Source: an uncultured Acidobacteriota bacterium
GTDB taxonomy: Bacteria > Acidobacteriota > Blastocatellia > RBC074
Direction of reading: 5' to 3'
DNA: 64,000 nt
Assembly: GCA_963796275.1 (NCBI GenBank)
Contig: CAWCKY010000006.1
Location: 1,920,001 to 1,984,000, forward strand
Each line of letters opens with the position of its first letter. Position 1 is the first letter of the stretch. Shown here one piece after another: positions 31,120-61,314 of the stretch. The position numbers were made by a program, and so were the translations under genes. The notes beneath the pieces were generated by a model. It did not search any database and was not told the origin of the DNA. It worked only from the letters and a program-made list of their open reading frames with translations.

Positions 31120-31938
31120 TCAATGGGAATCAAGAGGACTGCGTACGCCTAGGCCGCCGCGATTTAGCACGTGTGTGTAATCATCATCGTCGTCCGCACA
31201 TCCTGGTGACCGAGTAATACCTGAACTTACGAATGTCATAACTTGATTCCAGCAAATGTGTGGCAAAGCTGTGGCGGAATGTATGGCAGCCCGCATGTTT
31301 GCTGATTCCAGCATCGCGAATCGCACGTTTGACCGCCTTCTGCAGTGCTGATGGTTGAGATGATGGCGTCTTTCTATTCCTGAACGCGGGTCAATGGAGC
31401 GTTTCGAGGCTGGGAAAATATACTGCCATTTCCGTCACTTTTCGGCGTTCGGGTATTTTCGCGATAGCGCGTATGGCAGGTCAACCGTTCCGAATCCTTC
31501 ACGAACATCTTCTTCGTGCAAAGGGTGATTTCCACCAGATGGTCTTTTAAACGATCATGCAACGAGCGCGGCAACATCGTCACACGATCCATATCGCCTT
31601 TAGCCTCACGCACGGTGATCTGGTGTCGCTCGAAATCAAAATCCTTTACACGCAGGCGAAGGCATTCCAGCAATCTGAGTCCCGAGCCATAGAGCAAACT
31701 GGCCATAAGACGATTAGTTCCGTTTAGCTGAGCGATGACCGATCGAGCTTCTTCAGGCGTAAAGACTTCATGTAACCGCGTCGTTTTCTTGGCTCGCTCA
31801 AACTGAGTAACCGGACCAATATCCTTGTGCAATACCTGTCCGTAGAGATATAAGAGCGTAGAGCGCCTGATTTTGTGTTGATGAAGTGACTGCAAGCTTG
31901 ACGGCGAGATGTGTGAGAAATTCGCGAATTTCTTCCAA
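31120..31938 (-). pseudogene. intI: Integron integrase pseudogene, 5'-truncated, about five or more frameshift/stop lesions
   Basis: Segments [67 protein letters not shown] (IntI-specific insert), [38 protein letters not shown] spread over several frames. Confidence 0.93.
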
Positions 31939-31975
31939 CCCTGGCTCGGCGGCTTCGGTGCAACAGTTGTTAGGC
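31939..31975 (-). repeat. Inverted left half of an attC fused to the intI remnant
   Basis: Reverse complement GCCTAACAACTGTTGCACCGAAGCCGCCGAGCCAGGG matches the left arm of the array attC consensus. Confidence 0.85.
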
Positions 31976-32023
31976 GCAGATATACAAGAAGCTAATGATG
32001 TAGTCTAAATTCAGGTAATTTAA

Positions 32024-32509
32024 ATGAAACACACTATTTATGTTTTGTTTATGTTGAGTATCGTGTTGACAGGATTATCAATGTCCTGTTCCAGGATAAT
32101 CTCACCCAGTAATTTCCTGGAAAGATTCTCTTTCGATGATACGATTAAGGAGTTGAACGGTTCAGGACTCCGACTGTCTATATCCGGCTCAGGTACAACG
32201 CAAGCAAGTGCAGGTGACCCAAGCCCACATCGACGAGAGGTTATAAGCGAGTATGAAATAAATGAGACAGTTGGTGAGAGCTTTGACGAGAGGACATTTT
32301 TGGATAGGTTAAGTGAAGCGATCCAGCAGCAAGCTAGAAATTCAGGGGCAAAGGTAAATGGAAGCGGCAAAATTGGAGGGGAAACCTTCTATATCAATTA
32401 TAAAAATGGATCGCATGTTGGTGGAGTTGACGTGATAGGCATCCGGACAGGGAAGAATAAATACAAAATGTGGTGTGTAATCAGAGAGCTTGCAAGTGAA
32501 CCAAAGTGA
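32024..32509 (+). CDS. Cassette: hypothetical lipoprotein
   Basis: Hydrophobic leader with LSMSC lipobox-like Cys; AT-rich; follows GTTAGGC 31969. Confidence 0.7.
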   Translation: MKHTIYVLFMLSIVLTGLSMSCSRIISPSNFLERFSFDDTIKELNGSGLRLSISGSGTTQASAGDPSPHRREVISEYEINETVGESFDERTFLDRLSEAIQQQARNSGAKVNGSGKIGGETFYINYKNGSHVGGVDVIGIRTGKNKYKMWCVIRELASEPK

Positions 32510-32774
32510 GCTCGATGTTAGGCTGTCGGTAGCGAAAGTAACGAGCGACGAAAGAGAAAGACCATTAAAGCGACTCGTTGAGATGAAACAATAGCCGAAG
32601 TGTGTGGGTGAGATCGAAAAGAACTACAAAGGAAATGAGTCCCAGTTAGGGACGCGCTTACAGAAATATCTACTGATACCTGGCTTTACCACAAAGTTTT
32701 CCTTCTCCGATGCCTTCACGACGGCCGACAGTGACGATCTCACTCAGGTCCTCGTTAGGCAGATTTGATGAAAC

Positions 32775-33227
32775 ATGAAGCTGGATAATGACAAAATCGA
32801 CAACGCAGTTTTGGCGCTCCTTTTATTGGGGGTGCACGATGGCGCACGTGCCTGGAAGGGATTCGACTGGGTCTCAATGAATCGGCTTCATGCGAAGGGC
32901 TTCATTTCGGACCCACGTGGAAAGGCGAAATCCATCGTCTTCACGGAAGAGGGGCTTCGGCAAGCTGAGCGTCTGCTTGAAGAGTTGTTTTTTGAGCACG
33001 ACAGCGCTGCCGGTCAACCAAGTGAACGTGAACACGTTTACGCGATTGTTCGGTACGACCGGTTTCAAGAACCGTCAGAGGATTCGTTTACGGTCAAAGA
33101 GATAGTAAGGACGCAAGCTATAGCCGAAGCGGAAGTCAATCGACTTAATGAACTCAGCGCTGACAAGAACTGCACATACTCCTGGCAAGTGACGCGCTTA
33201 TTTACTGAAGGGAAAAGCCGCGGCTAA
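32775..33227 (+). CDS. Cassette: DUF6429-like winged-helix domain fused to an unknown domain
   Basis: RAWKGFDW..MNRLH.KGFISDPRGKAKSIVFTEEG; stop lies within GGCTAAC. Confidence 0.75.
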   Translation: MKLDNDKIDNAVLALLLLGVHDGARAWKGFDWVSMNRLHAKGFISDPRGKAKSIVFTEEGLRQAERLLEELFFEHDSAAGQPSEREHVYAIVRYDRFQEPSEDSFTVKEIVRTQAIAEAEVNRLNELSADKNCTYSWQVTRLFTEGKSRG

Positions 33228-33379
33228 CCGAGGCGTCGAGAATCCTTAATCACCGACTAGATATTGAAGAGAGTGACAGTGGCTATATGAGTCTATCGGA
33301 GGCAGGATCAATTATACTCAAGAAGGTAAATCGAAGCGAAAAGGCGCCAAAATAAGGCGCTTGGTTTTTTTGAAAACAC

Positions 33380-33469
33380 GCCTAACAATTGTTGCACCGG
33401 AGCCGCTGAGCGCGGGGTTTTATTGAGAACCGAGGTCAGACGGCGGCCCGGTGAACACTGCCGTTAGCC
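33380..33469 (+). repeat. attC site (type A)
   Basis: GCCTAAC..TTGCACCGGAGCCGCTG..CGGCGGCCCGGTGAAC..GTTAGCC. Confidence 0.9.
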
Positions 33470-33486
33470 CGCTTCAGGAGAATGTA

Positions 33487-34046
<560 letters not shown>

Positions 34047-34052
<6 letters not shown>

Positions 34053-34104
34053 CAAATCGGTCCAGCCGACCGCCTCCGGTGGCGGCTGACCTCCACCGTT
34101 AAAC
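34047..34104 (+). repeat. Short 58-bp attC (foreign type)
   Basis: GGCTAAC AAATCG GTCCAGCCGACCGCC TCC GGTGGCGGCTGACC TCCACC GTTAAAC. Confidence 0.85.
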
Positions 34105-34118
34105 GCCAAGGAGACATC

Positions 34119-34559
34119 ATGACGGTCAAGCGTATGGACAACGTCGGCATCGTGGTAGAAGACATCGATGCCGCTATTGAATTCTTCACCGAACTTGGCC
34201 TCGAGCTCGAGGGGCGCGCCCCAATCGAAGGAGATTGGGCAGATGGCGTCACTGGATTGCGCGACATGCGCGTCGAGATTGCCATGATGCGTACGCCGGA
34301 CGGTCACGGCCGGCTCGAGATCTCCCGATTCCTCGCGCCACCTGTGGTCGCCGATCACCGCAGCGCCCCGGTGAACGCTCTCGGTTACCTACGCGTCATG
34401 TTCACCGTGGAGGACATTGACGATACGCTCGCCCGGCTCGGCAAACGCGGCGCGGAGCTCGTCGGCGAAGTGGTCCAGTACGAAGATACGTATCGGCTTT
34501 GCTACATCCGGGGCCCCGAAGGGATTCTCATCGGGCTCGCCCAAGAGCTAGGGCAGTAG
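34119..34559 (+). CDS. Cassette: VOC/glyoxalase family protein
   Basis: RMDNVGIVVEDIDAAIEFF..YRLCYIRGPEGI. Confidence 0.92.
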   Translation: MTVKRMDNVGIVVEDIDAAIEFFTELGLELEGRAPIEGDWADGVTGLRDMRVEIAMMRTPDGHGRLEISRFLAPPVVADHRSAPVNALGYLRVMFTVEDIDDTLARLGKRGAELVGEVVQYEDTYRLCYIRGPEGILIGLAQELGQ

Positions 34560-34656
34560 ACTTCCCGATGAGCACATGTAAAGACGCTCATCGAAATATG
34601 CGAGTCTATTTGAGCCGTTACCACAAATCGCTGCCGCAAAACCGCGATTTGCATCG

Positions 34657-34748
34657 TCTCCAACAGCTCCGCCGCGCATGCGGCGGACTCGCCATGAGCG
34701 GCCTTTATCCGTAGTCGCGTGTGCGAGCCGCCGAAGCACAGCGTTAGA
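34657..34748 (+). repeat. Degenerate attC
   Basis: CTCCAAC..CGGCGGACTCGC..GCGAGCCGCCGAAG..GTTAGAC. Confidence 0.55.
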
Positions 34749-35084
34749 CTGTCCCTGATGAGTAGAGATGATGATTAAAGTAGCCTCTGCACGGATGAGG
34801 ATATATTGCGAGCAATCGAATCTTGGGCTGAGCTATTGGCCATGATGCGATTTGATGAGGCATTTTCGCAAATCCTTTGCCGCAGCGACGTTGGGTGGAC
34901 TCCAGAGTTAATTCGATAGTGATTTCGATTTACGGCTCGCCTGAACCTCGGCAGGATGGAAAAAGGTTTTCCGCGTGACGTCTATCTTGTGTGAGCAGCC
35001 GCGAAGGGATAGATATTCTACCGTGTAGAGCAGTATGGAGACGATCTGAACAGGCCCCGGTAGTACGTCGACGCTGTCGTATAT

Positions 35085-35126
35085 AACCGAGGCCACACGG
35101 CGGCCTGGTGAACACAGTCGTTAGGC
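35085..35126 (+). repeat. Right half of attC (type A)
   Basis: AACCGAGGCCACACGGCGGCCTGGTGAACACAGTCGTTAGGC. Confidence 0.8.
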
Positions 35127-35149
35127 CGCCGCGACTGGCTGTGAGTTCT

Positions 35150-35650
35150 ATGACAATGGATTTGATAAGAAAAAGAGCGCAACTCGCCTTCATGCCTCTT
35201 ACCGAGTGTCCTGATGCCATTCCTCAAGTGGCGCGTTGGTGGTGTGACGAGTGGGGACTACCTAAACGTCATCAATCAATGGAATCTTATTTGAGCGAGC
35301 TAGCGAGCCTAGAACCATGTAAGCTACCCATTCATTTGCTGGCCCTCAGCGAGAGAAACATCGTCGGAGTTGCAACTCTCAAGGACCAGAGCGAGTTTCG
35401 CAAACTGTTCCCTGACTTTCAATATTGGCTGAGCGGCGTATACGTCCCGCTAGCGCTCCGTAGGGGAGGTATAGCAACATCTCTCTGCCTCAAGATGGTC
35501 GAGATCGCAAAAAGTAGAGGGGTCACTAGGCTACATCTTATGACAGAAGTCCTCGACGGAGGGCTCTATGCCAAGATTGGGTGGGACCCCATCGAGCAAG
35601 CTCGTGTAAACGACCTGGACTTATTGGTAATGGCAAGAGACACTTGTTAG
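35150..35650 (+). CDS. Cassette: GNAT N-acetyltransferase
   Basis: WLSGVYVPLALRRGGIA; LYAKIGW. Confidence 0.85.
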   Translation: MTMDLIRKRAQLAFMPLTECPDAIPQVARWWCDEWGLPKRHQSMESYLSELASLEPCKLPIHLLALSERNIVGVATLKDQSEFRKLFPDFQYWLSGVYVPLALRRGGIATSLCLKMVEIAKSRGVTRLHLMTEVLDGGLYAKIGWDPIEQARVNDLDLLVMARDTC

Positions 35651-35661
35651 CAAGGAATGCA

Positions 35662-35751
35662 GCCTAACACGCGTTCAACCAGAGCCGCTCGAGGGAAGCT
35701 TTGGCTGCCACCAACATCTCAGGCGCGACCCAGTTAACATCGTCATTAGGC
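35662..35751 (+). repeat. Degenerate attC
   Basis: GCCTAAC..GTTCAACCAGAGCCGC..CAGTTAAC..ATTAGGC. Confidence 0.7.
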
Positions 35752-35976
35752 GTCGATCGACACGTAGAAAGTGAACAAGGTAGCGACCAATCAAGCAATG
35801 AACAACATGCCAGAATCGAAAGATACTTGGTTTAATTGAAAATAGAGAGCTCCGCGAAACCGAGACCATAATTTTGAGCGAAAGAAAATAGCGACGAACG
35901 AACGAAAGACGTAAAAGGATATATCCTTCCGAGCAAGAGCGCTCCGCGAAGCCGAGGCCATATGGATTGAAAATGT

Positions 35977-36066
35977 GCCTAACAATCGTTGCGGCGGAGC
36001 GCGCGAGCCGGGTTCTCGCTTTCCATCGAAGGGACGTCGTGCGCCGGGTGAACACGGTCGTTAGGT
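35977..36066 (+). repeat. attC (type B)
   Basis: GCCTAAC..GGAGCGCGCGA..CGTCGTGCGCCGGGTGAAC..GTTAGGT. Confidence 0.85.
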
Positions 36067-36145
36067 CCCCGTAACGAGTTAGCGAAGGCGTCGAGTTACG
36101 GCCACGTGTGTAATCGGGTTAATTGAAGGGAACAGGGTTGAAATA

Positions 36146-36544
36146 ATGAACAACTTCTTTGCAAGGAGCGTGTTCTTCGTGAAAGACGCTGAGGGCTCCT
36201 TAAGGTACTACACGGAAACGCTCGGATTCTCACTGGAGTGGAACTATCAAGAACAAGGCAGGGCTTTTGTATTTGAAGTGAGCCTGCTTGGGTTTCAACT
36301 GATCCTGAATCAGACTGAGCCTGGGACGGAGGATCGGGCGGGTCACGGCCGCTTGTTCATTGGCCTCGATGAAGACCAGGTAAATGCATTTCGCAAACAC
36401 ATCGAGGAAAAGGGCATCAAGATAACCGTCATCCAGTGGGGGGCTCCAACACTTGTAATACGCGACCTGGATGAGAACGAATTGTTCTTTGGATTGCCGG
36501 AGAGCGAACGAGAGAGCCTGCAAGCGCAACTCGCAGACGCCTAA
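36146..36544 (+). CDS. Cassette: VOC/glyoxalase family protein
   Basis: VFFVKDAEGSLRYYTETLGF..IRDLDENELFF; stop lies inside GCCTAAC. Confidence 0.88.
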   Translation: MNNFFARSVFFVKDAEGSLRYYTETLGFSLEWNYQEQGRAFVFEVSLLGFQLILNQTEPGTEDRAGHGRLFIGLDEDQVNAFRKHIEEKGIKITVIQWGAPTLVIRDLDENELFFGLPESERESLQAQLADA

Positions 36545-36628
36545 CAATTGTTGCACCGGAGCGCGCGAAGATGGTTTGACGATCTTCGGCCGAGGCGCAT
36601 CAAGCGCCCGGTGTACATGGCGTTAGGC
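36539..36628 (+). repeat. attC (type B)
   Basis: GCCTAACAATTGTTGCACCGGAGCGCGCGA..GCGCCCGGTGTAC..GTTAGGC. Confidence 0.88.
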
Positions 36629-36810
36629 GCTCTGAATGAAGGGGCGCGTTTGCTGAAAGATAGTTAGGCGACAGGGCTGCAACTCTACTTTTTTATTGGG
36701 GCCAACGCCATTTTGCCGAAGGGGCTCTGTGCTTCTAAAATTATGAACTTACAAACCTTAGAATTCGTAGGTCAACAGGATTAAGTCAATCAATAACAAG
36801 GAGGAGCGTT

Positions 36811-37368
36811 ATGTTCTGTCCGACTTGTGGTAGAGAAGACTCCCAGGGGCGGAGATTCTGCCCAACGTGCGGGGCTAACCTGGAGAGAGTGACAAGGGCG
36901 TTGTCGCCGGGAGGTGACAGTCTACTCGCAAGAGCTGACAAGGCCTTTGACAGGTTGGTTGCGCGCTACGCCGGACTTTTCTTCGGCGGGGCTCGGGACA
37001 GAGCCCTGGACTGGCGAGTGAGTCATTCGTGGACGCTTTGGGCGCAGGCTTTTTTGGCGTTGCCCGCCAACTTTATTCTATTCTGGATCGTTCTCTTCGG
37101 CATTCTCCCACTCAGGCTGTTTACCTTGTTGCTTAGCAGCCCTTTCCGCTTGCTGTCTGAACGCAGCGCCCAACAAGACGCCGCGCCGTTGCAAGATCAC
37201 GTGGATGGATACGGGCTTTTACTGGGAGCGGCTGCGAAAGAGGAAAATAAGCGAGCGCAGTTGCAAGCGCCGCACCCCGGACAATGGTCGCTGAGTTCCG
37301 GTCCCAGCGCAGTCGAGCACACCACAAAGAATTTGCAGGATACGGCTGCGACAGAGCGTAAAAGCTGA
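36811..37368 (+). CDS. Zinc-ribbon membrane protein
   Basis: MFCPTCG..FCPTCGANL, TM segment, C-terminal SAVEHTTKNL; strong RBS. Confidence 0.8.
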   Translation: MFCPTCGREDSQGRRFCPTCGANLERVTRALSPGGDSLLARADKAFDRLVARYAGLFFGGARDRALDWRVSHSWTLWAQAFLALPANFILFWIVLFGILPLRLFTLLLSSPFRLLSERSAQQDAAPLQDHVDGYGLLLGAAAKEENKRAQLQAPHPGQWSLSSGPSAVEHTTKNLQDTAATERKS

Positions 37369-37582
37369 GGAGATGAGTTATCTCGGCCGTTGATTGAAAC
37401 CGCATATAGTCTAGGCGCTCGGTTGCGCGAGAGAATGCTTCAACTTCTGCCGATGAACGAACGAGAGCGGCTACAAAGTCTGGACAGATAGGGCCGAAAC
37501 AATTACACATTTCGTGTCCTTGCGGTGACACCGTATAGGTAAGAAGCCAGATGCGCCGCCGCGCTGCCGCAAGGACTACGCT

Positions 37583-37969
37583 TTGTCGACAGGAGCAGTT
37601 CATTTGTTACGAACCATAGACGGTAGCCATACCCCCGAAAAGCCGATTGCAGAGCATTTGATACCACATTGTGGACATTTCATGTACATCAACGAAATCA
37701 GCGGACGCCTCGAGGCCATCGGATGCCCCAGCGGGCTAAATTGGTGGGTACGTTATGATAAGGAGGAAGTAAAACTTGAATTCTCTCCCGAGCAGAAAGT
37801 GGTAGTACCAATCGAAGTGTGGTGCCAAGCAGTGATAAAGTTCTCGGATGATATAGCATCTTTCTATTTTCAAGATTGGCCAAAGACACTGACCGATGAT
37901 TTTGATCAGGAATGGTTATCATTATTTATTGAAGAGTGGCGGCGCCGTCGCACGCAATGCGGAGCCTAA
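37583..37969 (+). CDS. Cassette: hypothetical protein, probably 5'-truncated
   Basis: LIPHCGH..IGCPSGLNW; stop lies in GCCTAAC 37963. Confidence 0.6.
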   Translation: MSTGAVHLLRTIDGSHTPEKPIAEHLIPHCGHFMYINEISGRLEAIGCPSGLNWWVRYDKEEVKLEFSPEQKVVVPIEVWCQAVIKFSDDIASFYFQDWPKTLTDDFDQEWLSLFIEEWRRRRTQCGA

Positions 37970-38167
37970 CAAACATTGCACGAAACACTCAAATGCCGGT
38001 GACTTCCAGATGCAAGAAAACCGACGGTTCAATAGCGACAAGAACTATTTGAGCTTTCGGCAACGAGCAAGATAGCGCGCTTTGACAAAGAATCAATATA
38101 TGACGGAGCGTGCAGGTCGGACGGCGGGCCAAAGGATAGGAAATAAACCCCAGCTCCGATCGAACAC

Positions 38168-38255
38168 CTCTATTAAATGTTGCACCGGAGCTGCTGGCCA
38201 GGGTTTTATTGAAATCCGAGGTCACACGGCAGCCCGGTGAACACAGCCGTTAGGC
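38168..38255 (+). repeat. attC (type A, damaged R'' box)
   Basis: AAATGTTGCACCGGAGCTGCTG..CGGCAGCCCGGTGAAC..GTTAGGC. Confidence 0.85.
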
Positions 38256-38285
38256 GCACTTCCTACCTGAGTTGAGGATAAACTT

Positions 38286-38601
38286 ATGGAATCAGCAATC
38301 CAAAAACTCGCTATTATCTGCTTCTTTTGTCATCGGTATGTCACACATCATTCAACCGCGCTTCTGGGCACAATTCTTCGTCGACATACGCAGCAAGGGT
38401 GAGATAGGTGGCTTTATCAACGCGTTCATACATTTCCCGCTAGGTGCTCTGGTCATTGCCTTCCACAATGTCTGGCAAGGTGTCCCGGTGGTGGATAGAG
38501 TGAGTAATTTTATGGAGGGAGTTGCCAGAGTAGAATTCAAAGACGAAAAAGTCGGCTACCTTGATAAATTGGGCAGGTATATTTGGGAGCCCACAAAATA
38601 G
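38286..38601 (+). pseudogene. Chimeric cassette remnant: membrane protein N-terminus joined to a WG-repeat C-terminus
   Basis: MESAIQKLAIICF/VIGMSHIIQPRFW..FHNVWQG then SNFMEGVARVEFKDEKVGYLDKLGRYIWEP; frameshift near 38320. Confidence 0.65.
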
Positions 38602-38625
38602 TTGGTAAAAATTGCTCGAAAATGC

Positions 38626-38713
38626 GCCTGACAAACGTTGCACCGGAGCCGCCGAACCGGGGTTTTCTTGGAAGCCGAGGCCGCACGGCGCCCGGGGAAC
38701 TCTGGCGTTAGGC
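38626..38713 (+). repeat. attC (type A)
   Basis: GCCTGAC..GTTGCACCGGAGCCGCCG..CGGCGCCCGGGGAAC..GTTAGGC. Confidence 0.9.
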
Positions 38714-38720
38714 GCATTCA

Positions 38721-39332
38721 ATGATTCCGCACCTGACAAATATGAATATGAGAGACCAAGAATACTTAAACCAGCCAGCGGTCTTAAAACAAATTTTGCA
38801 GGAGTCTGAGGCGTTAAATTTCCAAATGGCATCTGATCTACTGACCGGATCTTTTTTGCGTACTCTTGCAGCCAGCAAAGCTGGCGGTAAGCTCCTTGAA
38901 ATTGGCACCGGCACAGGTATCGCCACCTCATGGCTCCTCGATGGCATGGATCAGGAGTCGCAGTTAATCACTATTGACCAAAATGCGGATACTGTCTCTA
39001 TAGCGAAAAGGTACTTGGGACATGACAATCGAGTCTCCTTTTACACAGAAGATGCAGGCCCATGGCTGGAGAGATTCTCTGATCACTCATACGATCTGAT
39101 TTTCGCAGATGCATGGCCGGGGAAGTATAGTCACTTGGACGCAGCGTTGCGGTTGCTCAAGGTAGGCGGGTTGTACGTGATCGATGACATGCTACCGCAG
39201 CCAAATTGGCCTGAAGGGCATTGTGATCAAGTCGACCGACTTATTGCGATGTTGGAGAAGAGAAGCGATTTATTACTTACGAAGATGGTCTGGTCAACGG
39301 GGTTAATTGTTGCAGTCAAGGTTGGGGTATAG
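38721..39332 (+). CDS. Cassette: class I SAM-dependent O-methyltransferase
   Basis: LEIGTGTG, YDLIFADAWPGKY, LKVGGLYVIDD. Confidence 0.92.
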   Translation: MIPHLTNMNMRDQEYLNQPAVLKQILQESEALNFQMASDLLTGSFLRTLAASKAGGKLLEIGTGTGIATSWLLDGMDQESQLITIDQNADTVSIAKRYLGHDNRVSFYTEDAGPWLERFSDHSYDLIFADAWPGKYSHLDAALRLLKVGGLYVIDDMLPQPNWPEGHCDQVDRLIAMLEKRSDLLLTKMVWSTGLIVAVKVGV

Positions 39333-39392
39333 AGGAACGGGAACGCCCAACATGCGATCATCCGGACCCGTAATTATGTAGCGCTAAGCCTT

Positions 39393-39479: not shown

Positions 39480-39514
39480 GGCTAGAGGGGGAGCCGGGAG
39501 TATAGGACGCTGAG

Positions 39515-52809: not shown

Positions 52810-52861
52810 GGTGTGAAGAGAAGAACGAAAAATTCTGCATCACCTCTATCAGGTGCACGAG

Positions 52862-53347
52862 ATGAACACCAAGTCGATTTATAAATCGCCTGCGGGCGAA
52901 AGAGCGATAATGGCCTGGTATGATGCTCTGTTGGCTCGTTGGCCAGTACCTTGCACAACGCTAGACGTAGCCTCACGCTTTGGCGCCACCTTTGTCATCG
53001 CCAGCGGAAACGAATCGGCCCAACCGCTGGTACTCATTCATGGCGCAGGCTCGAACTCCGCCATGTGGGCAGGCGATGTTGGCGAATACAGTTGTAACTA
53101 CCGGGTGTATGCCGTTGACCTTCTCGGGGAACCCGGCAAAAGTGCGTCGATACGCCCGGACTGGAATAGTCCCGCCTATGCCGAATGGCTTGGCGATGTA
53201 CTCGACGCCTTGAAAGTAGAAAGGGCCACCCTCATCGGCCTGTCGCAAGGTGGCTGGACAGCGCTCAAGTTCGCTACTTCCCAACCGGAGCGGGTAGACA
53301 AGCTTGTGCTTTTGAGTCCTGGCGGTAGGTCTCTAGAACATGCCTAA
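52862..53347 (+). pseudogene. Alpha/beta hydrolase, C-terminally truncated
   Basis: LIHGAG, GLSQGG; ends just after LVLLSPGG at an attC R'' box, lacking the catalytic Asp/His half. Confidence 0.75.
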
Positions 53348-53729
53348 CAAACGTTGCGCCGCAGACGCCGCCAGCCTCAGCAGCAACAGCGACGGCGCAC
53401 AAGATCGCACGGTTGTATTACAGCCTGGTGAAAAACGGAAGAGAGTATCAGGAGCAAGGAACGCGTGCGTACGAAGAGCGAGAGCGGATCGTGGCTAATC
53501 TGGAGAAACGCGCGAAGACGCTCGGGTATGAGCTCGTCGCGAAAGCAGCATAAGAAACGCGGCGGCAGGAAATCGGAGGAAAGGTAGTGAGAAGGAAAGG
53601 GTCGTGGGAAAATTGCAGGAGGACGTGTACCTTGATCTGTAGAATCCAAAGGGCTGTTTCTTAAGAGCCGCCGGGCCTGAGTATATTGAAAACCGAGGAT
53701 AAAACGGCGGCACTTCATACGCATTAACC
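53342..53729 (+). repeat. attC interrupted by an IS110 remnant
   Basis: Left arm GCCTAACAAACGTTGCG at 53342; remainder GAGCCGCCGGGCC..TTGAAAACCGAGG..CGGCGGC resumes at 53665. Confidence 0.7.
53371..53667 (+). mobile_element. IS110-family remnant: transposase C-terminus plus right end
   Basis: Unlisted frame ATATAHKIARLYYSLVKNGREYQEQGTRAYEERERIVANLEKRAKTLGYELV, stop 53553; ends GTTTCTTAAGAG. Confidence 0.8.
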
Positions 53730-53749
53730 ACTAACGCAAGAAAGGCAGC

Positions 53750-54379
53750 ATGGCAAAACTGGTTCACATTCAAACCTCACCACGAGGTAGTCGCTCGGCG
53801 TCGCAAGCGGTGGCGGCGCACTTCATCAAGTGCTACTGTGCGGCGCATCCCGGCGACGTCGTGGATACGCTCGATATCTGGCAGACCGATCTTCCTGAGA
53901 TCAACGGCGCCACGCTTGACGCTGCATATGCCGTCAAGCACGACCAGCCGCATTCGCCGGAACAACTCCACGTCTGGCAGGCCATCGTGCGCATCGCCGA
54001 CCACTTTAAGTCAGCCGACAAATATCTAGTCTCGCTGCCGATGTGGAATTTCAGCATCCCGTATAAACTGAAGCACTATATTGATCTGCTCGTGCACCGG
54101 GGGCTGACCTACAGCTTCACGCTGGAAGAAGGTTACAAGGGGCTCGTCACGGGCAAGCCGCTTACAATGGTCTGTGCACGCGGCGGCGCGTATGGCCCCG
54201 GTTCCGGTGCAGAAAGTTACGATCAGCAGAGCGTGTATTTGAAGAATATCTTTGGGTTCATCGGTTTCACCGACATCCGGGAGATTTTCGTCGAGGCGAC
54301 GGAGGCGAGTCTCACCTCCAAGGATGAGGTCGTGGCAACTGCTAAACGTAAGGCGGCGGAGATGGCCTCGCATTTTTGA
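53750..54379 (+). CDS. azoR: FMN-dependent NADH-azoreductase
   Basis: SPRGSRSAS, PMWNFSIPYKLKHYID, ARGGAY, FGFIGFTD. Confidence 0.9.
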   Translation: MAKLVHIQTSPRGSRSASQAVAAHFIKCYCAAHPGDVVDTLDIWQTDLPEINGATLDAAYAVKHDQPHSPEQLHVWQAIVRIADHFKSADKYLVSLPMWNFSIPYKLKHYIDLLVHRGLTYSFTLEEGYKGLVTGKPLTMVCARGGAYGPGSGAESYDQQSVYLKNIFGFIGFTDIREIFVEATEASLTSKDEVVATAKRKAAEMASHF

Positions 54380-54436
54380 TCCGACTTTCATGCGCTGCCG
54401 AAGCAAGGTAGAAATGACTCGAGAGAATGATTGAAG

Positions 54437-54512
54437 GGACAAATGTGGCACGGAGCGGGGGAGTTGCTTTAAAGTCGATGCCAAACGGCGGCCCGGTGAA
54501 CTCCTGCGTAGA
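54437..54512 (+). repeat. Degenerate attC (type A)
   Basis: ACAAATGTGGCACGGAGC..CGGCGGCCCGGTGAACTCCTGCGTAGAT. Confidence 0.65.
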
Positions 54513-54567
54513 TGACCATTCACAAATATCGAAAAAGACCGCGGCCCACACGCCATGAGGTGCATAG

Positions 54568-54996
54568 ATGAGTGATACCGATTATCGAACTGAGCAGGAG
54601 ATTAAAAAGTTAGCACACGAATGGCTCGACGCGGCTCGGCGGCGGGATCGGGCGACACTGGACCGCATTCTTGCCGACGACTTCACGATTTCAGGTTGGC
54701 AACCCGAGGGGCAGTTGGCTGACAAACTCTACTATATCGAGGACTGCCTAAAACCCGTGGATATTCAGGATGGGTCTTATCAATATGATCGGTGGCGGGT
54801 ACGCCAGTACGGCGAGACTGCCGTGGTCAACTGCACTTTGGAGATACAAGCAATCGTTGAGGGCACGAAGTGGGGAGGAGAGGTGCTCATCACGGATGTA
54901 TGGGTTCGCGAGAGGGGCCAGTGGCGGGTAGTGACGCGCCACACGAGTCCGATTGTGAGAGAGGAAAAGGGAGAAGACGAAGCCGCGCCCATCTGA
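54568..54996 (+). CDS. DUF4440/NTF2-like protein
   Basis: LDRILADDF, VRQYGETAVV, TDVWVRERGQWRVV..H.S. Confidence 0.88.
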   Translation: MSDTDYRTEQEIKKLAHEWLDAARRRDRATLDRILADDFTISGWQPEGQLADKLYYIEDCLKPVDIQDGSYQYDRWRVRQYGETAVVNCTLEIQAIVEGTKWGGEVLITDVWVRERGQWRVVTRHTSPIVREEKGEDEAAPI

Positions 54997-55148
54997 CGAC
55001 CGCAGGCGTAGTAGTCGCCGCTACTCAATCCTAACCCGTCGTTGGACCGCAGCGCGCGATGAATGATTCGGGCAGCACCTCGTGGTAGCACGAGGTGCTC
55101 CCTGATGCTTGACGTCCTGATTGTCAGCTGGCGAAAGGAGCAAAGGGC

Positions 55149-55595
55149 ATGATTAAACACTTCGACCACGTAACCATTGTGGTAAGAGATGTCGAGGCGG
55201 CCAAGCAGTTTTTCGGCCTGCTAGGGTTCAACGAAGACAAGTCTGTCGTTATCGCGGGCCCACAGTTCTCGGCCTACATGGGCGTGGACGGCATCGAAGC
55301 CGAACATGTCACGCTTGTCCTCGCCAACTGCTCGCCGCGAACGGAGGTGCAGTTACTGAAGTACCGTCACCCGGATACTCTCCCCGACCCGGCAATTCGC
55401 AACCTCACGAAACTGGGGTTCAACCATGTCTGCTTCGCCGTGGATGACCTGGAGGCCGAAGTGGCAAGGCTGAAAGCCATGGGCGTCCAACTCCGGAACG
55501 AGATCATGGTATTCCATAACCGAAAGCTAGTCTTTTTATCCGGACCGGAGGGTATCACCGTGGAACTGGCTGAATGGGATCGAAGCCGCGGGTAG
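55149..55595 (+). CDS. VOC/glyoxalase family protein
   Basis: FDHVTIVVRD, GFNHVCFAVDD, GPEGITVELAE. Confidence 0.9.
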   Translation: MIKHFDHVTIVVRDVEAAKQFFGLLGFNEDKSVVIAGPQFSAYMGVDGIEAEHVTLVLANCSPRTEVQLLKYRHPDTLPDPAIRNLTKLGFNHVCFAVDDLEAEVARLKAMGVQLRNEIMVFHNRKLVFLSGPEGITVELAEWDRSRG

Positions 55596-55732
55596 CGCCG
55601 AACCAACTGCTTACCAGGCACATTACGAAACGGCGGGGAAAAAGGATAGCCATAATAATTGATCGCGATCCTTTGCGTCACCCGGAAATAACAGTTCAGT
55701 TCCGAGCTAGCATCCACGACGGAGGATAATCC

Positions 55733-56137
55733 ATGGAAGCGAACCAAGTGCGTGAAATTATCGAGAAGTGGGCTGAGGGAGTTAGGGCGCGAGACATCGA
55801 TGCTGTCCTGAGTCACCACTCATCGGACCTACTCATGTATGATGTTGTGGGACCCACCCGCTTGCAGGGACTGGACGCGTATCGCCGAACCTGGCTCGAG
55901 CAGTTCTTCCCTTGGCATGGTGGGATAGGCCGTTTTGAGGTAGTCGATCTAAAGGTGTCGGCAGGGGCTGATGTTGCCTTTGCCACGGCGATACTTGAAT
56001 GCGCGGGAACTGAGAACGGAAAGCAGGTCGCATTCACGTTGAGACTGACGATCGGTATGGAGAAGCGCGATGGGGAGTGGATGGTCGTTCACGAGCACCA
56101 CTCGCAGCCCTTGGACTTCGACGCTGCCCGCATCTGA
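55733..56137 (+). CDS. SnoaL/YybH-like NTF2 protein
   Basis: RARDIDAV, LRLTIG..DGEWMVVHEHHS. Confidence 0.9.
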   Translation: MEANQVREIIEKWAEGVRARDIDAVLSHHSSDLLMYDVVGPTRLQGLDAYRRTWLEQFFPWHGGIGRFEVVDLKVSAGADVAFATAILECAGTENGKQVAFTLRLTIGMEKRDGEWMVVHEHHSQPLDFDAARI

Positions 56138-56143
56138 GCGGGG

Positions 56144-56324
56144 TCTGAGAGCGCTGGCCGTAAGGTGAGCAAGGTGAATCCGTCCTATACGTCGCAAGAT
56201 TGCTCGAAATGTGGGGCCAGGGGGGGGCACTCGCTTCGGGGGATGGTTCCCGATGGGGAATCGTGAGAACCAAGAATCCGCCACTATAACGCCCAAAGCG
56301 GCGTTATAGTGGAGGGAGTGTCAA
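56144..56324 (+). mobile_element. IS200/IS605 TnpB remnant with right-end hairpin (omega-RNA-type 3' end)
   Basis: ESAGRKVSKVNPSYTSQDCSKCG zinc-ribbon fragment; hairpin CCACTATAACGCC/GGCGTTATAGTGG at 56281-56312; terminal GTGTCAA. Confidence 0.8.
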
Positions 56325-56390
56325 ACAATCCAATATTTTCACCGGGCTGCCGGTAGGCCAACAGCGTTCTGCAGACAAGGAGTGCGCTCG

Positions 56391-56765
56391 ATGTTCGATT
56401 ACGATGGCCGGATTTTTCGCTCGATATCGAATTCAGATGGAGGCGATGTCAGCGGAGAGACGAATTTCCACTATCATCAGCGAGGCGATCTCGTCTGGGC
56501 GATCTACAATGGCGGATATGTATTATTCGGCACGCTCTTAGCCAGGGTCGACGCCTTCGGAAACCTGGACATGCGCTACCAGCACATATCGGTTGACGGC
56601 ACTTTCAAGTCGGGTCTTTGTCAATCCCGACCGGAGAGGTTACCCGATGGTCGTCTTCGGCTTCATGAGCGCTGGCAGTGGAGCGACGGCGCCGAAGGCG
56701 AAGGTACCTCCATTATCGAAGAGATACCAAAGGATGACTTACATAATGAATATTTTGACGTATAG
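56391..56765 (+). CDS. Small beta-barrel conserved hypothetical protein (often annotated N-acetylglutamate synthase-like)
   Basis: YDGRIFRS..F.YHQ..VWA.Y.GG..GRLRLHERWQW; RBS AAGGAG. Confidence 0.8.
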   Translation: MFDYDGRIFRSISNSDGGDVSGETNFHYHQRGDLVWAIYNGGYVLFGTLLARVDAFGNLDMRYQHISVDGTFKSGLCQSRPERLPDGRLRLHERWQWSDGAEGEGTSIIEEIPKDDLHNEYFDV

Positions 56766-57169
56766 CTATTATTCCTTCAACCTTCCTGACATCCGTTTCA
56801 TCTGAACGCGCCCAACATATGGTTTGTTTACCAGGAATTCACATGGCAAACCCCAGCCAAAAAGCTGCGTCTAACACTTATTTCGCGGAGTGCGGGTGCG
56901 CCATATCGGCGGACAAGTGTAGACCTTGTTTTTATAGCCGAGATCACGCGAGGGCCTGTGGGACTCTGACGTGCCGGGCGAAATCAATTTGCAGACAGGA
57001 GTCGTATCATGGTTCAAGATTCAGGATGTGAACCATCCATTCTGAATTTCTGTTATTGATGTTTGCCAATGAAGTCGTGCATGAAAATACGATAAGCATA
57101 AGGACGAAGTAGGAATTCCGCGCTATGCAAATGTATAAAGCGACCGGAGAAGGCCGAGGAAAACCCGTT

Positions 57170-57610
57170 ATGAAAGAAAAATCATTGATGATACTGATTG
57201 CCGGGCCATACCGATCAGGTACTGATGATGATCCGGCAAAGATGGCTGCAAACGTGAGGGCAATGGAATCATTCGCATTACCTATTTATCGGGCAGGACA
57301 TCTCCCTGTCTTGGGTGAGTGGTTTGCTCTGCCATTGGTCGAGATGGCTGGCTCAAAGGAGGTGGGAGACGCACCATTCAACGAAATCTTTCACCCTATT
57401 TCTGAGCGACTCCTTGATAAGTGTGACGCTGTACTGCGAATCGGCGGGGCGTCAAATGGAGCCGACGTCATGGTTGAAGTCGCACAAAAGAGAGGGTTGC
57501 TGGTGTTTTACTCAATTGAAGATATAGTGTCATATAAATCATCCAAGAAGACGGGGAAGACGAGTAGAAGCATCAGTCCGGGGCAAGACAAAAAGCGTCG
57601 CATAATATAA
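57170..57610 (+). CDS. DUF4406-like (nucleoside deoxyribosyltransferase-fold) protein
   Basis: ILIAGPYRSG, CDAVLRIGGAS.GAD. Confidence 0.8.
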   Translation: MKEKSLMILIAGPYRSGTDDDPAKMAANVRAMESFALPIYRAGHLPVLGEWFALPLVEMAGSKEVGDAPFNEIFHPISERLLDKCDAVLRIGGASNGADVMVEVAQKRGLLVFYSIEDIVSYKSSKKTGKTSRSISPGQDKKRRII

Positions 57611-57659
57611 GCGACCTTGCTTCTGCATTTTTAAACTGCCAGCGTATTAGTAGTAAATT

Positions 57660-58118
57660 ATGGCCAGAGCACCGTTTCAGATCCTTGTCTATCCATATCG
57701 TCAAATCAGCAACGGTGAATACAGGTATGTTTTGTTGAAACGGTCGGATGTGGGTTGGTGGCAAGGCATCGCTGGCGGCGGTGAAGATGGAGAGATTCCA
57801 CTCGATGCTGCCAGGAGAGAGGTGAGGGAAGAAGCGGGGATAGCGAGTGAGTCACATTTCTTAACATTGGATACCATAGTTTGGGTTCGTGTGACAGAAT
57901 TCAGAGACAGCTATCTCTGGGGCGAGGACGTCTATGTAATCCCGCAGTATTGCTTTGGGGTGTTAGTGAGTGATGAGAAAATAACACTGTCTGGAGAGCA
58001 CAGTGATTATAGATGGCTCAATTATGATGAGGCAGACAAGCTCACGAGATACGATGAGAACAAAACAGCGTTGTGGGAGTTAAATCAAAGATTGAAGGGC
58101 AAAGGCCCAAGAGTCTGA
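57660..58118 (+). CDS. NUDIX hydrolase (NudB-like)
   Basis: GGGEDGEIPLDAARREVREEAG Nudix box; SGEHSDYRW. Confidence 0.92.
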   Translation: MARAPFQILVYPYRQISNGEYRYVLLKRSDVGWWQGIAGGGEDGEIPLDAARREVREEAGIASESHFLTLDTIVWVRVTEFRDSYLWGEDVYVIPQYCFGVLVSDEKITLSGEHSDYRWLNYDEADKLTRYDENKTALWELNQRLKGKGPRV

Positions 58119-58276
58119 TGAGTAATTGGCAGCCTATGCGCAAAGCCGCCGATGGAACAATGGATAAGTCGGATGAGCATCTGTTGCTCAAGGGTTGAGT
58201 ATAAGGATAAATATAGAAATATAAATCTTGCATAATGAACATGGATTGTTAAGCACCAGTTTGTCGGGAGGTACGT

Positions 58277-58786
58277 TTGAATATAATTGAGACAGAAAGG
58301 TTAATACTACGAGAACTCACGACAGAGGATGCATCATTCATATTTGAACTTTTGAATGATCCTTCATTCATACGATACATAGGGGATAAAGGTGTGAAAT
58401 GTGTTGAGGATGCGCATCAGTACATATTGACTGGGCCGGTCGAGAGTTATCATCAGAATGGGTATGGCTTGTATTTAGTGATATTGAAATCTATAGAAAA
58501 ATCGATCGGATTATGCGGGTTAGTTAAAAGACCCACTCTACCGGATGCGGATATTGGATTTGCCTTTCTTCCGACATATCGGTCAAAGGGTTATGCATAC
58601 GAGGCGGCGGCTGCCGTCCTGTCTTATGGGCAAGGGGTTTTAGGATTGAAGCGAGTGCTTGGAATTACGTTACCGGAAAATAACAGTTCGATAAAGGTGC
58701 TAAGAAAAATTGGGCTGAGATATGACCGGATGGTGAGATTGAAAGATGAAGAGAAAGATCTAATGCTATTTACGACTGAAGCCTAA
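58277..58786 (+). CDS. GNAT (RimJ/RimL-like) acetyltransferase
   Basis: IETERLILRE, DIGFAF..YRSKGYAYEAA, EN.SSIKVL.KIG. Confidence 0.9.
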   Translation: MNIIETERLILRELTTEDASFIFELLNDPSFIRYIGDKGVKCVEDAHQYILTGPVESYHQNGYGLYLVILKSIEKSIGLCGLVKRPTLPDADIGFAFLPTYRSKGYAYEAAAAVLSYGQGVLGLKRVLGITLPENNSSIKVLRKIGLRYDRMVRLKDEEKDLMLFTTEA

Positions 58787-58933
58787 GAGGTATGGGTACT
58801 TTAATTTGAGCGAGTCTGTGACGATTCATCAGATCATCCATACATCAATCTTTGGACGTACGATCGGATCCGCCATCTCAGTATCTGTATATTCATCTCA
58901 TCACAGCTAAAGCTCCGACGGAGCTTTGAACCT

Positions 58934-59314
58934 ATGAAGAAGTCAGCACCTATATCAAGTCCTGATGCTTACGTCGCCACTCTTTCCGGGTGGCAACGTG
59001 TTATGGTGGAAAAACTGCGCGCGGCTGTTCTTGCCACCGCCGATCTCGACGAAGTCATCAAGTGGGGTAATTTGGTCTACCTCTCAAACGGCCCCGTACT
59101 ACTCATCCGAGCTGAAGAGAATCGGGTCCTGTTCGGCTTTTGGCGAGGAAAACTCCTGCGCGAGATCGAACAGCGCCTGAAGCCCGGAGGGAAATACGAG
59201 ATGGCCACAATCGAATTGCGCGAGAACCAAGAAATCACGCGAACGGTGGTGCGTCGCCTCGTCAAAGCGGCAGTCGAGCTGAATAGGACCCTCGGCGATC
59301 CCACGAAAATCTAA
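58934..59314 (+). CDS. DUF1801 (YdhG-like) protein
   Basis: DAYV..LRAAVL..EVIKWG..Y; LVKAAVELN. Confidence 0.85.
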   Translation: MKKSAPISSPDAYVATLSGWQRVMVEKLRAAVLATADLDEVIKWGNLVYLSNGPVLLIRAEENRVLFGFWRGKLLREIEQRLKPGGKYEMATIELRENQEITRTVVRRLVKAAVELNRTLGDPTKI

Positions 59315-59334
59315 CGAACATAAGGAGGGCAATA

Positions 59335-59799
59335 GTGGCGTTGTCGGTGATCATCATCCTTTATATATCCATCGGGGTGGTGTCTGCGATCGGATCGATC
59401 GCCATCTCCAAGAAGATGTTTTCTGCAAAGGCTGAGCAGATGTTCTTCGGTATATTCCTCGTTCTGATCGCTGTTATTTATCTGGCGTTCACCGCTTATT
59501 TTGGTTCTGGCAATGCCTGGCGGATTGAAGGGGTGGCCGTGATAATTTTCGCGGTACTTGGCATTCTCGGTATGCGGATACCTGTTATTCTCCTGCTCGG
59601 CTATGCATTGCACGGCGTTTGGGACCTGCTCCACGAACTGCAGGTACACGCAGGAGTTGAGATCGATGCCACCGGAACATTATCGGATATCCCACTGGCT
59701 TATGGATTCTTCTGCGCCACCTACGACTGGTGCATGGCAGCGTACTTTTATACCCGGCGTGATTCGTGGAATGCCGCTTGGAGAGCACCGGCAAGATGA
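59335..59799 (+). CDS. Membrane protein (DUF6010-like)
   Basis: Four to five TM helices; GYALHGVWDLLH, YGFFCATYDW. Confidence 0.7.
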   Translation: MALSVIIILYISIGVVSAIGSIAISKKMFSAKAEQMFFGIFLVLIAVIYLAFTAYFGSGNAWRIEGVAVIIFAVLGILGMRIPVILLLGYALHGVWDLLHELQVHAGVEIDATGTLSDIPLAYGFFCATYDWCMAAYFYTRRDSWNAAWRAPAR

Positions 59800-59904
59800 G
59801 CGGCGCTCCCGTCTGTTTCACGCTGCCGAACAACTTTGTAAGTAAACTGGGAGTGTGCGGCGAAGATGTGGTGATGCTAGCGGGTACCGGGAAAGGAAGG
59901 TTAG

Positions 59905-60864
59905 ATGACAGGCGACGTAAATAGTCGGAGTGTCGATCCGATCGCTTTGCGTGGTCGTATCGCGGTTGTTGCCGGGGCGACTCGAGGAGCCGGTCGTGGT
60001 ATCGCAGCCGCCCTGGGAGAGGCTGGCGCCACGGTCATCTGTTGTGGTCGCAGCAGCCGCAATCGCTCTCTGCCATCCGACTATGACCGTTCCGAGACAA
60101 TAGAAGAAACAGCTGAACTCGTTTCATTATTGGGCGGTCATGGCATTCCGGAGGTTGTCGACCATCTCGATGCCGACCAGGTCAAGCGTCTGGCGGAGCA
60201 AATCGGAGATTCGTATGGTCACATCGATATTTTGGTGAACGACATTTGGGGCGCAGAGAAGCTCAAAGGTGGACCGCCCGACTGGAACAAGCCAATCTGG
60301 CAGATCGATCTCCAGAAAGGGCTCCGGATTCTTCGCCTCGCGGTCGATACACACTTGATAACCTCCCACTATCTCTTGCCTCTTCTGATAGCACGCCCTG
60401 GAGGCCTCCTGATCGAGGTAACCGACGGAACATCTGACTACAACGCGTCGCGATACCGGATCTCGGCGTTCTACGACCTGGCTAAGGTTGCCGTGAATCG
60501 GCTGGCGTTCTCTCAAGGGCACGAACTCGCGCCTTACCATGCGACGGCGGTGGCAATAACCCCGGGATGGCTTCGGTCGGAGATGATGCTCGAGGCCTAC
60601 AAAGTCACCGAGGAAAACTGGCGCTCCGCCACAGCTCCGCCCGGGTTCGCGGTATCCGAATCGCCTCGTTACGTGGGACGCGCCGTTGTGGCGCTCGCAA
60701 TGGACCCTGGTCGAGAACGATGGAATCAGCGGTCCGTGACATCGGCGGAACTCGCGTCCGAGTACGGCTTCACAGACGTTGATGGTTCTCGCCCTGACGT
60801 GTGGCGATACATGCAAACCGTCGAGAATGGCGATCAAAACGCCAACCCGAACGACTATCGCTAG
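59905..60864 (+). CDS. SDR oxidoreductase
   Basis: AGATRGAGRGIA, DILVNDIWG, YDLAK, TPGWLRSE. Confidence 0.93.
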   Translation: MTGDVNSRSVDPIALRGRIAVVAGATRGAGRGIAAALGEAGATVICCGRSSRNRSLPSDYDRSETIEETAELVSLLGGHGIPEVVDHLDADQVKRLAEQIGDSYGHIDILVNDIWGAEKLKGGPPDWNKPIWQIDLQKGLRILRLAVDTHLITSHYLLPLLIARPGGLLIEVTDGTSDYNASRYRISAFYDLAKVAVNRLAFSQGHELAPYHATAVAITPGWLRSEMMLEAYKVTEENWRSATAPPGFAVSESPRYVGRAVVALAMDPGRERWNQRSVTSAELASEYGFTDVDGSRPDVWRYMQTVENGDQNANPNDYR

Positions 60865-61314
60865 CACCGAATCGGTCATTGCGATCCGGCGTGCAACAGT
60901 GTTTGCGCGGCAATTCGCTTTTTGGCCAATCTGGTGCCCCTCTCAGTGCGAACATGAATTTTGTGACATGAACTTTGTCATAGGATTAGTGAAGGGGGGT
61001 ATGGAATGATCATTGTATCGGGTCGCATCTACGTTTCGAGGCCTCGGCCCGGGACCGGAACTGACTGGATTCATCGAGCGAGCAGAGGGAAGCCGGCATC
61101 AAATCTCTTCGACCGGGCCGCCGTGAAGAGAGAGCCCAGGCATGCTGTCCAAGGGCCAAATGACAGCATCTGCCGCTGAAACGAGACGTTGGGCGACTAT
61201 TTTAATCCGGTGACGATAGACCGGCTTTACCGGCTTTCTAAATGAAACAAATTGAGCTAAATAAGTTGAGGACCGTGCAAATTAAAGTTGATTGTTATCA
61301 GTAGTTTCTGGTTG

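Follow-up and report, generated by a model that had tools for sequence, protein, structure and literature searches.

A probable chromosomal integron in decay, with an attC array beside an intI pseudogene, in a Bryobacteraceae-like acidobacterium

Overview of the locus

We analysed a stretch of 64,000 nucleotides, referred to here as the window (C6:1920001-1984000), from an acidobacterial genome of 9.46 Mb in 7 contigs with a GC content of about 0.54. The window very probably carries a decayed chromosomal integron, in other words, a large attC cluster without a functional integrase (CALIN), located beside a pseudogene of the integrase gene intI. Integrons stack promoterless cassettes downstream of a common promoter, and IntI, which is a tyrosine recombinase, recombines the folded bottom strand of attC with the attI site beside its own gene. 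The locus is a real and sizeable, but ordinary, further case of a known type of relic. A first-pass annotation of the same DNA had described a decayed cassette array beside a dead intI in a probable acidobacterium, which agrees with our results, while its statements that the array has attC families of its own, extends over 25-29 kb and is a superintegron went too far.

The integrase gene has been destroyed: it has lost its first 44 codons, as well as the region in which attI and the cassette promoter (Pc) belong. The 13 complete and approximately 8-18 partial attC sites, as well as their cassettes, are eroding by point mutation, deletion to half sites, frameshifts and the accumulation of insertion-sequence debris. 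Shuffling from within the array would have ceased, cassettes would be expressed only from promoters of their own, and the eight sites that retain both conserved triplets could be mobilised by an incoming integrase.

Identification of the attC sites

The motif GCCTAAC/GTTAGGC occurs 21 times, against 4.64 expected, a number reached by none of 100 shuffles, and all of its copies lie at 31969-53348. A covariance model (R1) was built from 11 aligned full-length sites of the window and their RNAalifold structure, in which the R box and the L box each form a helix with an unpaired spacer between them; the L-box helix is bulged, and one more helix carries the second bulge. With filters off, R1 recovered 18 distinct sites at E<0.01, all confined to the minus strand and to positions 33376-54509; seven of these, including the short sites at 34047 and 46289, were outside the training set. 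Because R1 had been trained on the window, a second model (R2) was built from 111 other sites, 107 of which come from 12 relatives and 4 from another locus of the host genome. R2 found 13 complete sites (E<=4.2e-4), all of which point the same way and lie at 33376-47265. It also gave the partial site at 54439-54509 (E 0.0076), and nothing at E<1 in the window outside 33-55 kb. Its minus-strand scores are far above those of the plus-strand mirror images (for example, 77.9 vs 24.1 bits).

The search with nhmmer, which uses the sequence only, gave 18 matches in the locus and added half sites. Overall, 19 sites were counted at E<=1e-3, and two weak ones raise the number to 21; the array is carried to approximately 55.06 kb by six to eight partial sites, and about 10 further fragments were seen only by eye. 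At gathering thresholds, Rfam had no match in the window, including to any attC family, and a generic inverted-repeat finder missed the sites, which are too imperfect for it, and gave six unrelated pairs. Pairwise identity averages 70% among type A sites, 63% among type B sites and 55% across the two types. The type A consensus and the type B sites with their GAGCGCGCGA arms are as the first-pass annotation had described them, its short sites at 34047 and 46289 are found by both models, and the covariance-model scan that it proposed confirmed the array, R2 being independent of the window.

The sites have the canonical attC geometry, with paired R boxes, an L box, and two bulges that are separated by six base pairs on the R''/L'' arm, which is the 3' arm of the bottom strand (T-N6-C). 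In the alignment of related sites, the bulged T column holds a T in 109 of 110 sites, and the 111 bases of the unpaired L-box column are 62 C, 46 G and 3 A; in the window, C is found at the L-box bulge in 8 of the 13 sites. Nivina et al. 2016 (PMC5027507) give G as the usual extrahelical base of the L box and a conserved T as the far one, and state that IntI1 requires the 6-bp stem between the two for efficient recombination. Larouche and Roy 2011 (PMC3053210) report that IntI1 excises cassettes efficiently with either T-N6-G or T-N6-C sites. The agreement of the bulge geometry with both accounts supports the attC identity of the sites. The unpaired G and A previously noticed on the left top-strand arm are real and correctly placed, as judged from the alignment and the related-site columns; they match the attC extrahelical bases in position, although the L-box base on the recombined strand is C and not the usual G.

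Covariation across the 111 related sites was also examined. In total, 94.5% of the cells are paired (90.5% in the R helix), and compensatory cells, in which both sides have changed, number 196, compared to 42.7 +/- 5.3 in shuffles, none of 500 of which reached the observed value. When the partners are slid by 1-3 columns, pairing falls to 28-50%. The attC bottom strand is the coding strand of intI, and the sites lie upstream of the intI 5' end. The same orientation was found in the three relatives with intact integrons that were inspected (G036, G015 and G003). Of 21 metagenomic intI loci with matches, 17 also show it; the other four each have a single match, downstream and on the opposite strand.

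Imperfect GC-rich palindromes located between genes, some of which fold no better than shuffles, could also belong to repeats of the REP/BIME type (repetitive extragenic palindromes and bacterial interspersed mosaic elements) or to terminators unrelated to integrons. Such an origin is barely conceivable here. In the 9.46 Mb, nhmmer gave 27 matches at E<=1, with 18 in the locus and 5 in a second cluster on contig C1, and this copy number and clustering rule out REP-like repeats. Repeats found throughout the genome without a one-gene-per-repeat pattern, which had been named as the observation that would speak against an integron, are thus not what we see, since 23 of the 27 copies lie in these two clusters. 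The palindromes also share a single orientation, RYYYAAC/GTTRRRY ends and asymmetric bulges at the canonical spacing, they occur one after each short gene beside the intI relic, and in relatives sites of the same type often adjoin an intact intI. Judging from their sequence and predicted structure, the palindromes appear to be attC sites.

The integrase relic

The relic of intI was mapped by six-frame translation and by tblastn with the closest full-length IntI (P0001, 320 aa). Residues 45-79 of P0001 correspond to 31947-31843 in frame -2, residues 76-187 to 31856-31521 in frame -3, with 84% identity over 112 aa, and residues 188-244 to 31521-31351 in frame -2, with an in-frame TGA where P0001 has a W (TGG to TGA). 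The remaining part reaches residue 320 at 31123 through at least two further frame changes, and residues 1-44 are absent. Its nearest full-length relatives come from metagenomes, carry the annotation integron integrase, are 320 aa long and show 83% identity over the longest open fragment. A contig search with a 173-aa IntI fragment gave one spirochaete match, which is irrelevant, and a metagenome scan for IntI gave relatives of at most 68% identity and none of the 83% ones.

The TIGR02249 profile (integron integrase) matches the relic in four pieces, of 117.5, 73.5, 61.5 and 20.9 bits, and is the top-ranked NCBIfam family for the longest fragment (117 bits). The frame is not intact, the best piece reaching 117.5 bits against a curated cut-off of 265 bits. 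The piece of 73.5 bits covers TIGR02249 positions 181-251 and contains the IntI-specific insert (ALSRKYPNA...W.WQ..FP); because this insert separates IntI from Xer recombinases, the relic is identified as an IntI and not as a Xer. Comparison with P0001 also reveals the core motifs of tyrosine recombinases in the fragments (RLxECLRLR, a GKGD-like motif and YTHV). These features indicate that the relic is the remnant of an IntI and not a working integrase. The previously proposed intI pseudogene, divergent from the cassette array, is therefore borne out by its frames, the TGA, the truncation and the TIGR02249 matches.

A sequencing or assembly artefact in an integron that is in fact complete and active would give a similar picture, and the technology behind the 7-contig assembly is unknown, with no independent read over 31000-31839. 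We consider an artefact highly improbable. At least 4-5 frame changes, a substitution stop and a missing 5' end are concentrated within 830 bp, whereas the neighbouring open reading frames of 1120, 1117 and 920 aa are intact, which makes assembly error an unlikely source of the damage. In addition, the 5' end of intI has been replaced by attC sequence, which indel errors could not produce.

No second intI gene was found in the 9.46-Mb assembly, either by tblastn with the relic frames or by the TIGR02249 profile search, in agreement with the earlier view that the integrase has been lost. The best other tyrosine recombinase (C1:68013-68819) lacks TIGR02249 positions 180-236 and is regarded as Xer-like because these IntI-specific positions are absent.

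Loss of the intI 5' end and a second relic

In a complete integron, attI and Pc lie beside the 5' end of intI. Here, codons 1-44 and the region upstream have been replaced by an inverted half of a type A attC, which is fused to codon ~45. The two sequences meet within the loop of the attC, where they have a few bases in common, and not at the R-box crossover point; this position of the junction points to illegitimate joining and not to catalysis by IntI. The loss of the intI 5' end suggests that attI is missing at this locus.

A second relic of intI is present at C6:1912196-1912340, 39.6 kb to the left of the main relic and 7.7 kb to the left of the window start. It comprises residues ~12-62, is frameshifted, has the strand orientation of the main relic, and shares with it a direct overlap of ~50 nt (codons 45-62). 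No attC was detectable around it, in C6:1900001-1920000. An origin of the intI truncation by IntI catalysis is not supported, given that the left junction of the second relic has no matching attC half and that the right junction is in an attC loop.

The order of the pieces, namely the overlap, the 5' part, 39.6 kb of ordinary genes, the 3' part and the overlap again, corresponds to a circular permutation of an intact gene, which would be the trace expected from the integration of a circle, or the resolution of a tandem duplication, through intI. It is unlikely, in our estimation, that intI was dismantled in this manner, by a large rearrangement through the integron's own sites. The plainer reading is that two independent intI relics, the remains of two integrons, are close together by chance. 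If it were true, the rearrangement would constitute a documented integron that destroyed its own integrase while reshaping ~40 kb of chromosome.

A short contig from a soil metagenome matches only ~30 nt of the main relic (31900-31932), which are common to both relics, and both of its flanks resemble the distant relic locus. A related organism in that soil sample may carry the same N-terminal relic.

Decay of the array

The 13 complete sites retain the R' triplet GTT in 12 cases, the R'' triplet AAC in 9, and both in 8. By comparison, five of the six triplet positions never vary in the 111 training sites of R2, and the sixth is conserved in 110 of them. The nhmmer search found six half sites in the locus, the RibD_C cassette is split by a frameshift, and the alpha/beta-hydrolase gene at 52853-53347 ends after 164 residues exactly at the left end of an attC. 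Further to the right, the C-terminal remnant of a TnpB is followed by a 16-nt inverted repeat (56278-56293 / 56300-56315), and the region 56153-56315 is likely the debris of an IS200/IS605-type element inside the array. Half sites, mutated triplets, broken cassettes and transposase remnants all agree with the decay that had been proposed for the array.

Some elements of the IS110/IS1111 group target attC sites. A candidate C-terminus of an IS110-family transposase follows the truncated hydrolase; it was not retained as a firm call, given its weak E-value (0.011), without a Pfam match or a second copy in the genome. The coordinates of all features are compiled in Table 1.

Table 1. Predicted features of the integron relic, in window coordinates. 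For attC sites, the recombined bottom strand is the minus strand.
Feature	Coordinates	Strand	Evidence and remarks
intI pseudogene	31120..31947	-	codons ~45-320; at least 4-5 frameshifts and a TGA in frame; lacks codons 1-44, attI and any Pc
Left half (L''-R'') of a type A attC, inverted and joined to intI codon ~45	31937..31977	+	nhmmer E 5.1e-6, model positions 56-95
Cassette array, attC sites recognisable	31976..55060	+	~30 cassettes, mostly one short plus-strand gene each
Complete attC, type A	33380..33469	-	R2 77.9 bits, E 5.3e-16
Complete short attC, 58 nt	34047..34104	-	R2 31.4 bits, E 3.5e-5; canonical G and T bulges; behind the frameshifted RibD_C cassette
Right half (L'-R') of type A attC	35075..35128	-	nhmmer E 1.4e-7
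Complete divergent attC	35662..35752	-	R2 47.0 bits; R' triplet mutated, ATT for GTT
Complete attC, type B	35977..36066	-	R2 60.7 bits
Complete attC, type B	36539..36628	-	R2 55.2 bits; folds as the expected hairpin (z -3.9)
attC, type A	38168..38255	-	R2 51.7 bits; R'' box degenerate
attC, type A	38626..38713	-	R2 60.9 bits; R'' triplet mutated (GAC)
Complete attC, type A	39393..39480	-	R2 72.4 bits
attC, type A	40500..40586	-	R2 60.0 bits; R'' triplet mutated (GAC)
Complete attC, type B	41375..41464	-	R2 51.7 bits
Partial attC, type A	41956..42021	-	nhmmer E 3e-7; R''/L'' absent
attC, type B	42424..42515	-	R2 36.7 bits; R'' triplet mutated (AGC)
Partial attC, type A	42515..42589	-	nhmmer E 3.1e-10; left end absent, abuts the site at 42424..42515
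Complete short attC, 69 nt	46289..46357	-	R2 26.7 bits, E 4.2e-4; folds as a hairpin (z -3.3)
Complete attC, type A	47174..47261	-	R2 65.5 bits
Left part of type A attC	50763..50821	-	nhmmer E 5.5e-7
attC left end, weak	53340..53369	-	nhmmer E 0.67; cuts off the alpha/beta-hydrolase gene
Candidate IS110-family transposase C-terminus, 50 aa	53398..53550	+	NF033542 E 0.011, 14.9 bits, positions 317-342 of 343; after the truncated hydrolase
Partial attC, type A	54439..54509	-	R1 E 1.5e-5; R2 E 0.0076; last statistically supported site
Type B left half by eye (R''-spacer-L'', GCGCGCGA arm)	55024..55058	-	sequence only; no R1, R2 or nhmmer match
Cassette-like tail	55061..60864	+	short co-oriented genes, no detectable attC; candidate part of the array
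TnpB C-terminal remnant, 37 aa (IS200/IS605-type; Cas12f1-like TNB domain)	56153..56263	+	PF07282 33 bits, E 7e-8

The same attC type elsewhere in the genome and the family

In the second cluster of the host genome (C1:1002267-1006944), 5-6 attC sites of this type share one orientation and alternate with short plus-strand genes. There is no intI in the vicinity, and by its sequence the cluster would also be a CALIN. Single sites of this type occur at C6:60786-60880, C6:2815020-2815098 and C7:672384-672472, with a weak one at C6:1792311. Among 61 related genomes, a set that includes one unpublished genome (G004), R1 gave matches at E<=1e-5 in 38, including both same-genus genomes and 29 of the 36 that belong to the family of the host. 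The occurrence of this attC type in 29 of the 36 family genomes and at other loci of the host makes it a family-level type, and the view that the array has attC families of its own is not sustained. TIGR02249 is above its cut-off in 27 of the 61 relatives; at E<=1e-40 it is found in 20 of the 36 same-family genomes and in neither of the two same-genus genomes (87% and 73% complete).

In one genome of the same family (G005, 92% complete; contigs C26, C27, C18 and others), the attC model gave 51 matches and there was no intI at E<=1e-40. Very large arrays without an integrase seem to exist in the family.

The frequency of integrases with compatible attC types in the family (20 of 36 genomes) is one of several observations that would fit an array still shuffled or fed in trans by a working integron integrase from elsewhere, whether a plasmid, a piece of the genome missing from the assembly or an element that enters only transiently, a possibility that Cury et al. 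2016 (PMC4889954) raise for CALINs. Both conserved triplets are kept in 8 of the 13 complete sites, the assembly is only 94.7% complete (with 5.2% contamination), and the further copies of this attC type in the host (5-6 on C1 and 3-4 singles) possibly result from activity in trans or from insertion at secondary sites. We nevertheless regard an integrase acting in trans as very unlikely, considering that tblastn and TIGR02249 gave no second intI in 9.46 Mb, that the best other match is Xer-like, and that half sites and mutated triplets, which active recombination tends to purge or bypass, persist in the array.

Several observations weigh against the interpretation of the locus as a decayed integron. 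The genome is incomplete, and an intI on an unassembled or extrachromosomal piece is possible. The absence of attI is indirect, the attI sequences of this clade being unknown, and attI may have been displaced. The positions of the frameshifts are covered by no independent reads, the soil-metagenome run having none of 31000-31839. With respect to the attC sites, the covariation alignment was fitted to the model and is biased toward the structure; of six bottom strands, three fold with z <= -3 and the other three no better than shuffles (z +0.4 to +1.0). In unconstrained DNA folding, minimum-energy structures with paired R boxes were obtained for only 6 of the 13 sites, and the bottom strand is more stable than the top strand in only 6 of the 13. 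Finally, the R2 scan gave no evidence of attC in the tail at 55-61 kb.

Cassette content and extent

The genes of the array include five of the glyoxalase family, a GNAT, three SnoaL/DUF4440-like genes, an O-methyltransferase, MOSC, SDR, P450, alpha/beta hydrolases, AHSA1 and a flavodoxin-like gene; no toxin-antitoxin cassettes were recognised in the array. With its glyoxalase, GNAT and SnoaL-like genes, this content is the usual environmental mix that is typical of integrons. The GC content of the cassettes ranges from 0.42 to 0.61. The two cassettes with short attC sites, with values of 0.61 and 0.56, fall within this spread, and nothing but their attC sequence sets them apart; GC content does not single them out as imported, a status that the first-pass annotation had suggested for them and that we did not retain.

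Two genes of the array are on the minus strand, at 45064-46008 (DUF899, 314 aa) and at 48759-50342 (a 527-aa PD40 beta-propeller). The latter fills an unusually long gap of 2.2 kb between attC traces and may be a later insertion and not a cassette.

The attC evidence spans ~23 kb (31.94-55.06 kb), which is less than the 25-29 kb, up to 60.9 kb, that had been proposed. The tail beyond it contains glyoxalase, SnoaL_3, NUDIX, GNAT, DUF1801, DUF6010 and SDR genes, with a patchy GC content of 0.43-0.57. To the right of this tail, a 20-nt inverted repeat with 95% complementarity and a 19-nt loop is located in an intergenic region (61359-61417).

Host and genomic surroundings

The left flank of the locus carries CarboxypepD_reg outer-membrane receptors and a PSCyt/DUF1501 pair. 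Among the 120 homologues listed for the DUF1501 protein, all four with a name are from Acidobacteriota; the best named one belongs to Bryobacteraceae (80% identity), and the other named ones are assigned to Acidobacteria and Acidobacteriia (72-73% identity). By these sequence comparisons, the host is a Bryobacteraceae-like member of the Acidobacteriota, in line with the probable acidobacterial origin indicated earlier. The 694-aa protein adjoining intI has no homologue at E<=1e-20 among 40 relatives. One soil-metagenome DNA run contains 0.18 of the sampled words, and its short contigs span 13 of 30 bins; this run may represent the sample from which the genome came. Among the RNA runs, none was listed as containing the sequence.

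Significance and comparison with known systems

The locus adds a well-documented example of the death of a chromosomal integron in soil Acidobacteriota, whose integrons are known mainly from metagenomic cassette surveys; our understanding of integrons is unchanged by it. Integrons with an inactivated intI are known from Xanthomonas. One attC type of ~90 nt with T-N6-C/G bulges is common to a family rich in integrons (27 of 61 relatives with intI above the cut-off), and R1 and R2 could help to assign soil cassettes to this host family.

The closest known class is the CALIN with a pseudogene, as described by Cury et al. 2016 (PMC4889954), where intI pseudogenes are reported near 15 of 279 CALINs and only 6.6% of CALINs have more than 10 sites. 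Our locus likewise presents co-oriented attC sites and their cassettes in the absence of a working intI, has an intI pseudogene that can be recognised within 10 kb, and holds cassettes unrelated to the clinical resistance cassettes. It is larger than most CALINs, with 13 complete sites plus partial ones, and it fits the definition of the class as an attC cluster without a working integrase. For sedentary integrons, the same source gives a criterion of more than 19 attC sites or of presence in all genomes of a species; the locus has 13 complete sites, 19-21 including partial ones, and the closest genomes searched are from the same genus.

Like the superintegron of Vibrio cholerae, whose repeats are called VCR (PMC2727003 and PMC5027507), the array is chromosomal, holds many cassettes of mostly unknown or accessory function, and has a few families of attC sequences, with long hairpins (~90 nt). 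Compared to the sedentary chromosomal integrons of these two sources, the integrase is dead here, attI is missing, and the homogeneity of the attC sites is modest (~70% for type A and 63% for type B); no toxin-antitoxin cassettes are recognised. With such values and 13 complete sites, the label superintegron overstates the locus.

A covariance model specific to the attC sites of Acidobacteria is already in print (Ghaly et al. 2021, PMC8352920), and the sites to which it applies, by their description, also combine a taxon-conserved sequence and structure in chromosomal arrays. The T-N6-C variants of PMC3053210 share with the window sites the T and C bulges of the bottom strand, six base pairs apart. 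In that study, these variants are attCdfrA1 and engineered mutants, whereas here they make up a natural majority, with 8 of the 13 sites in the window and 62 of the 111 related sites.

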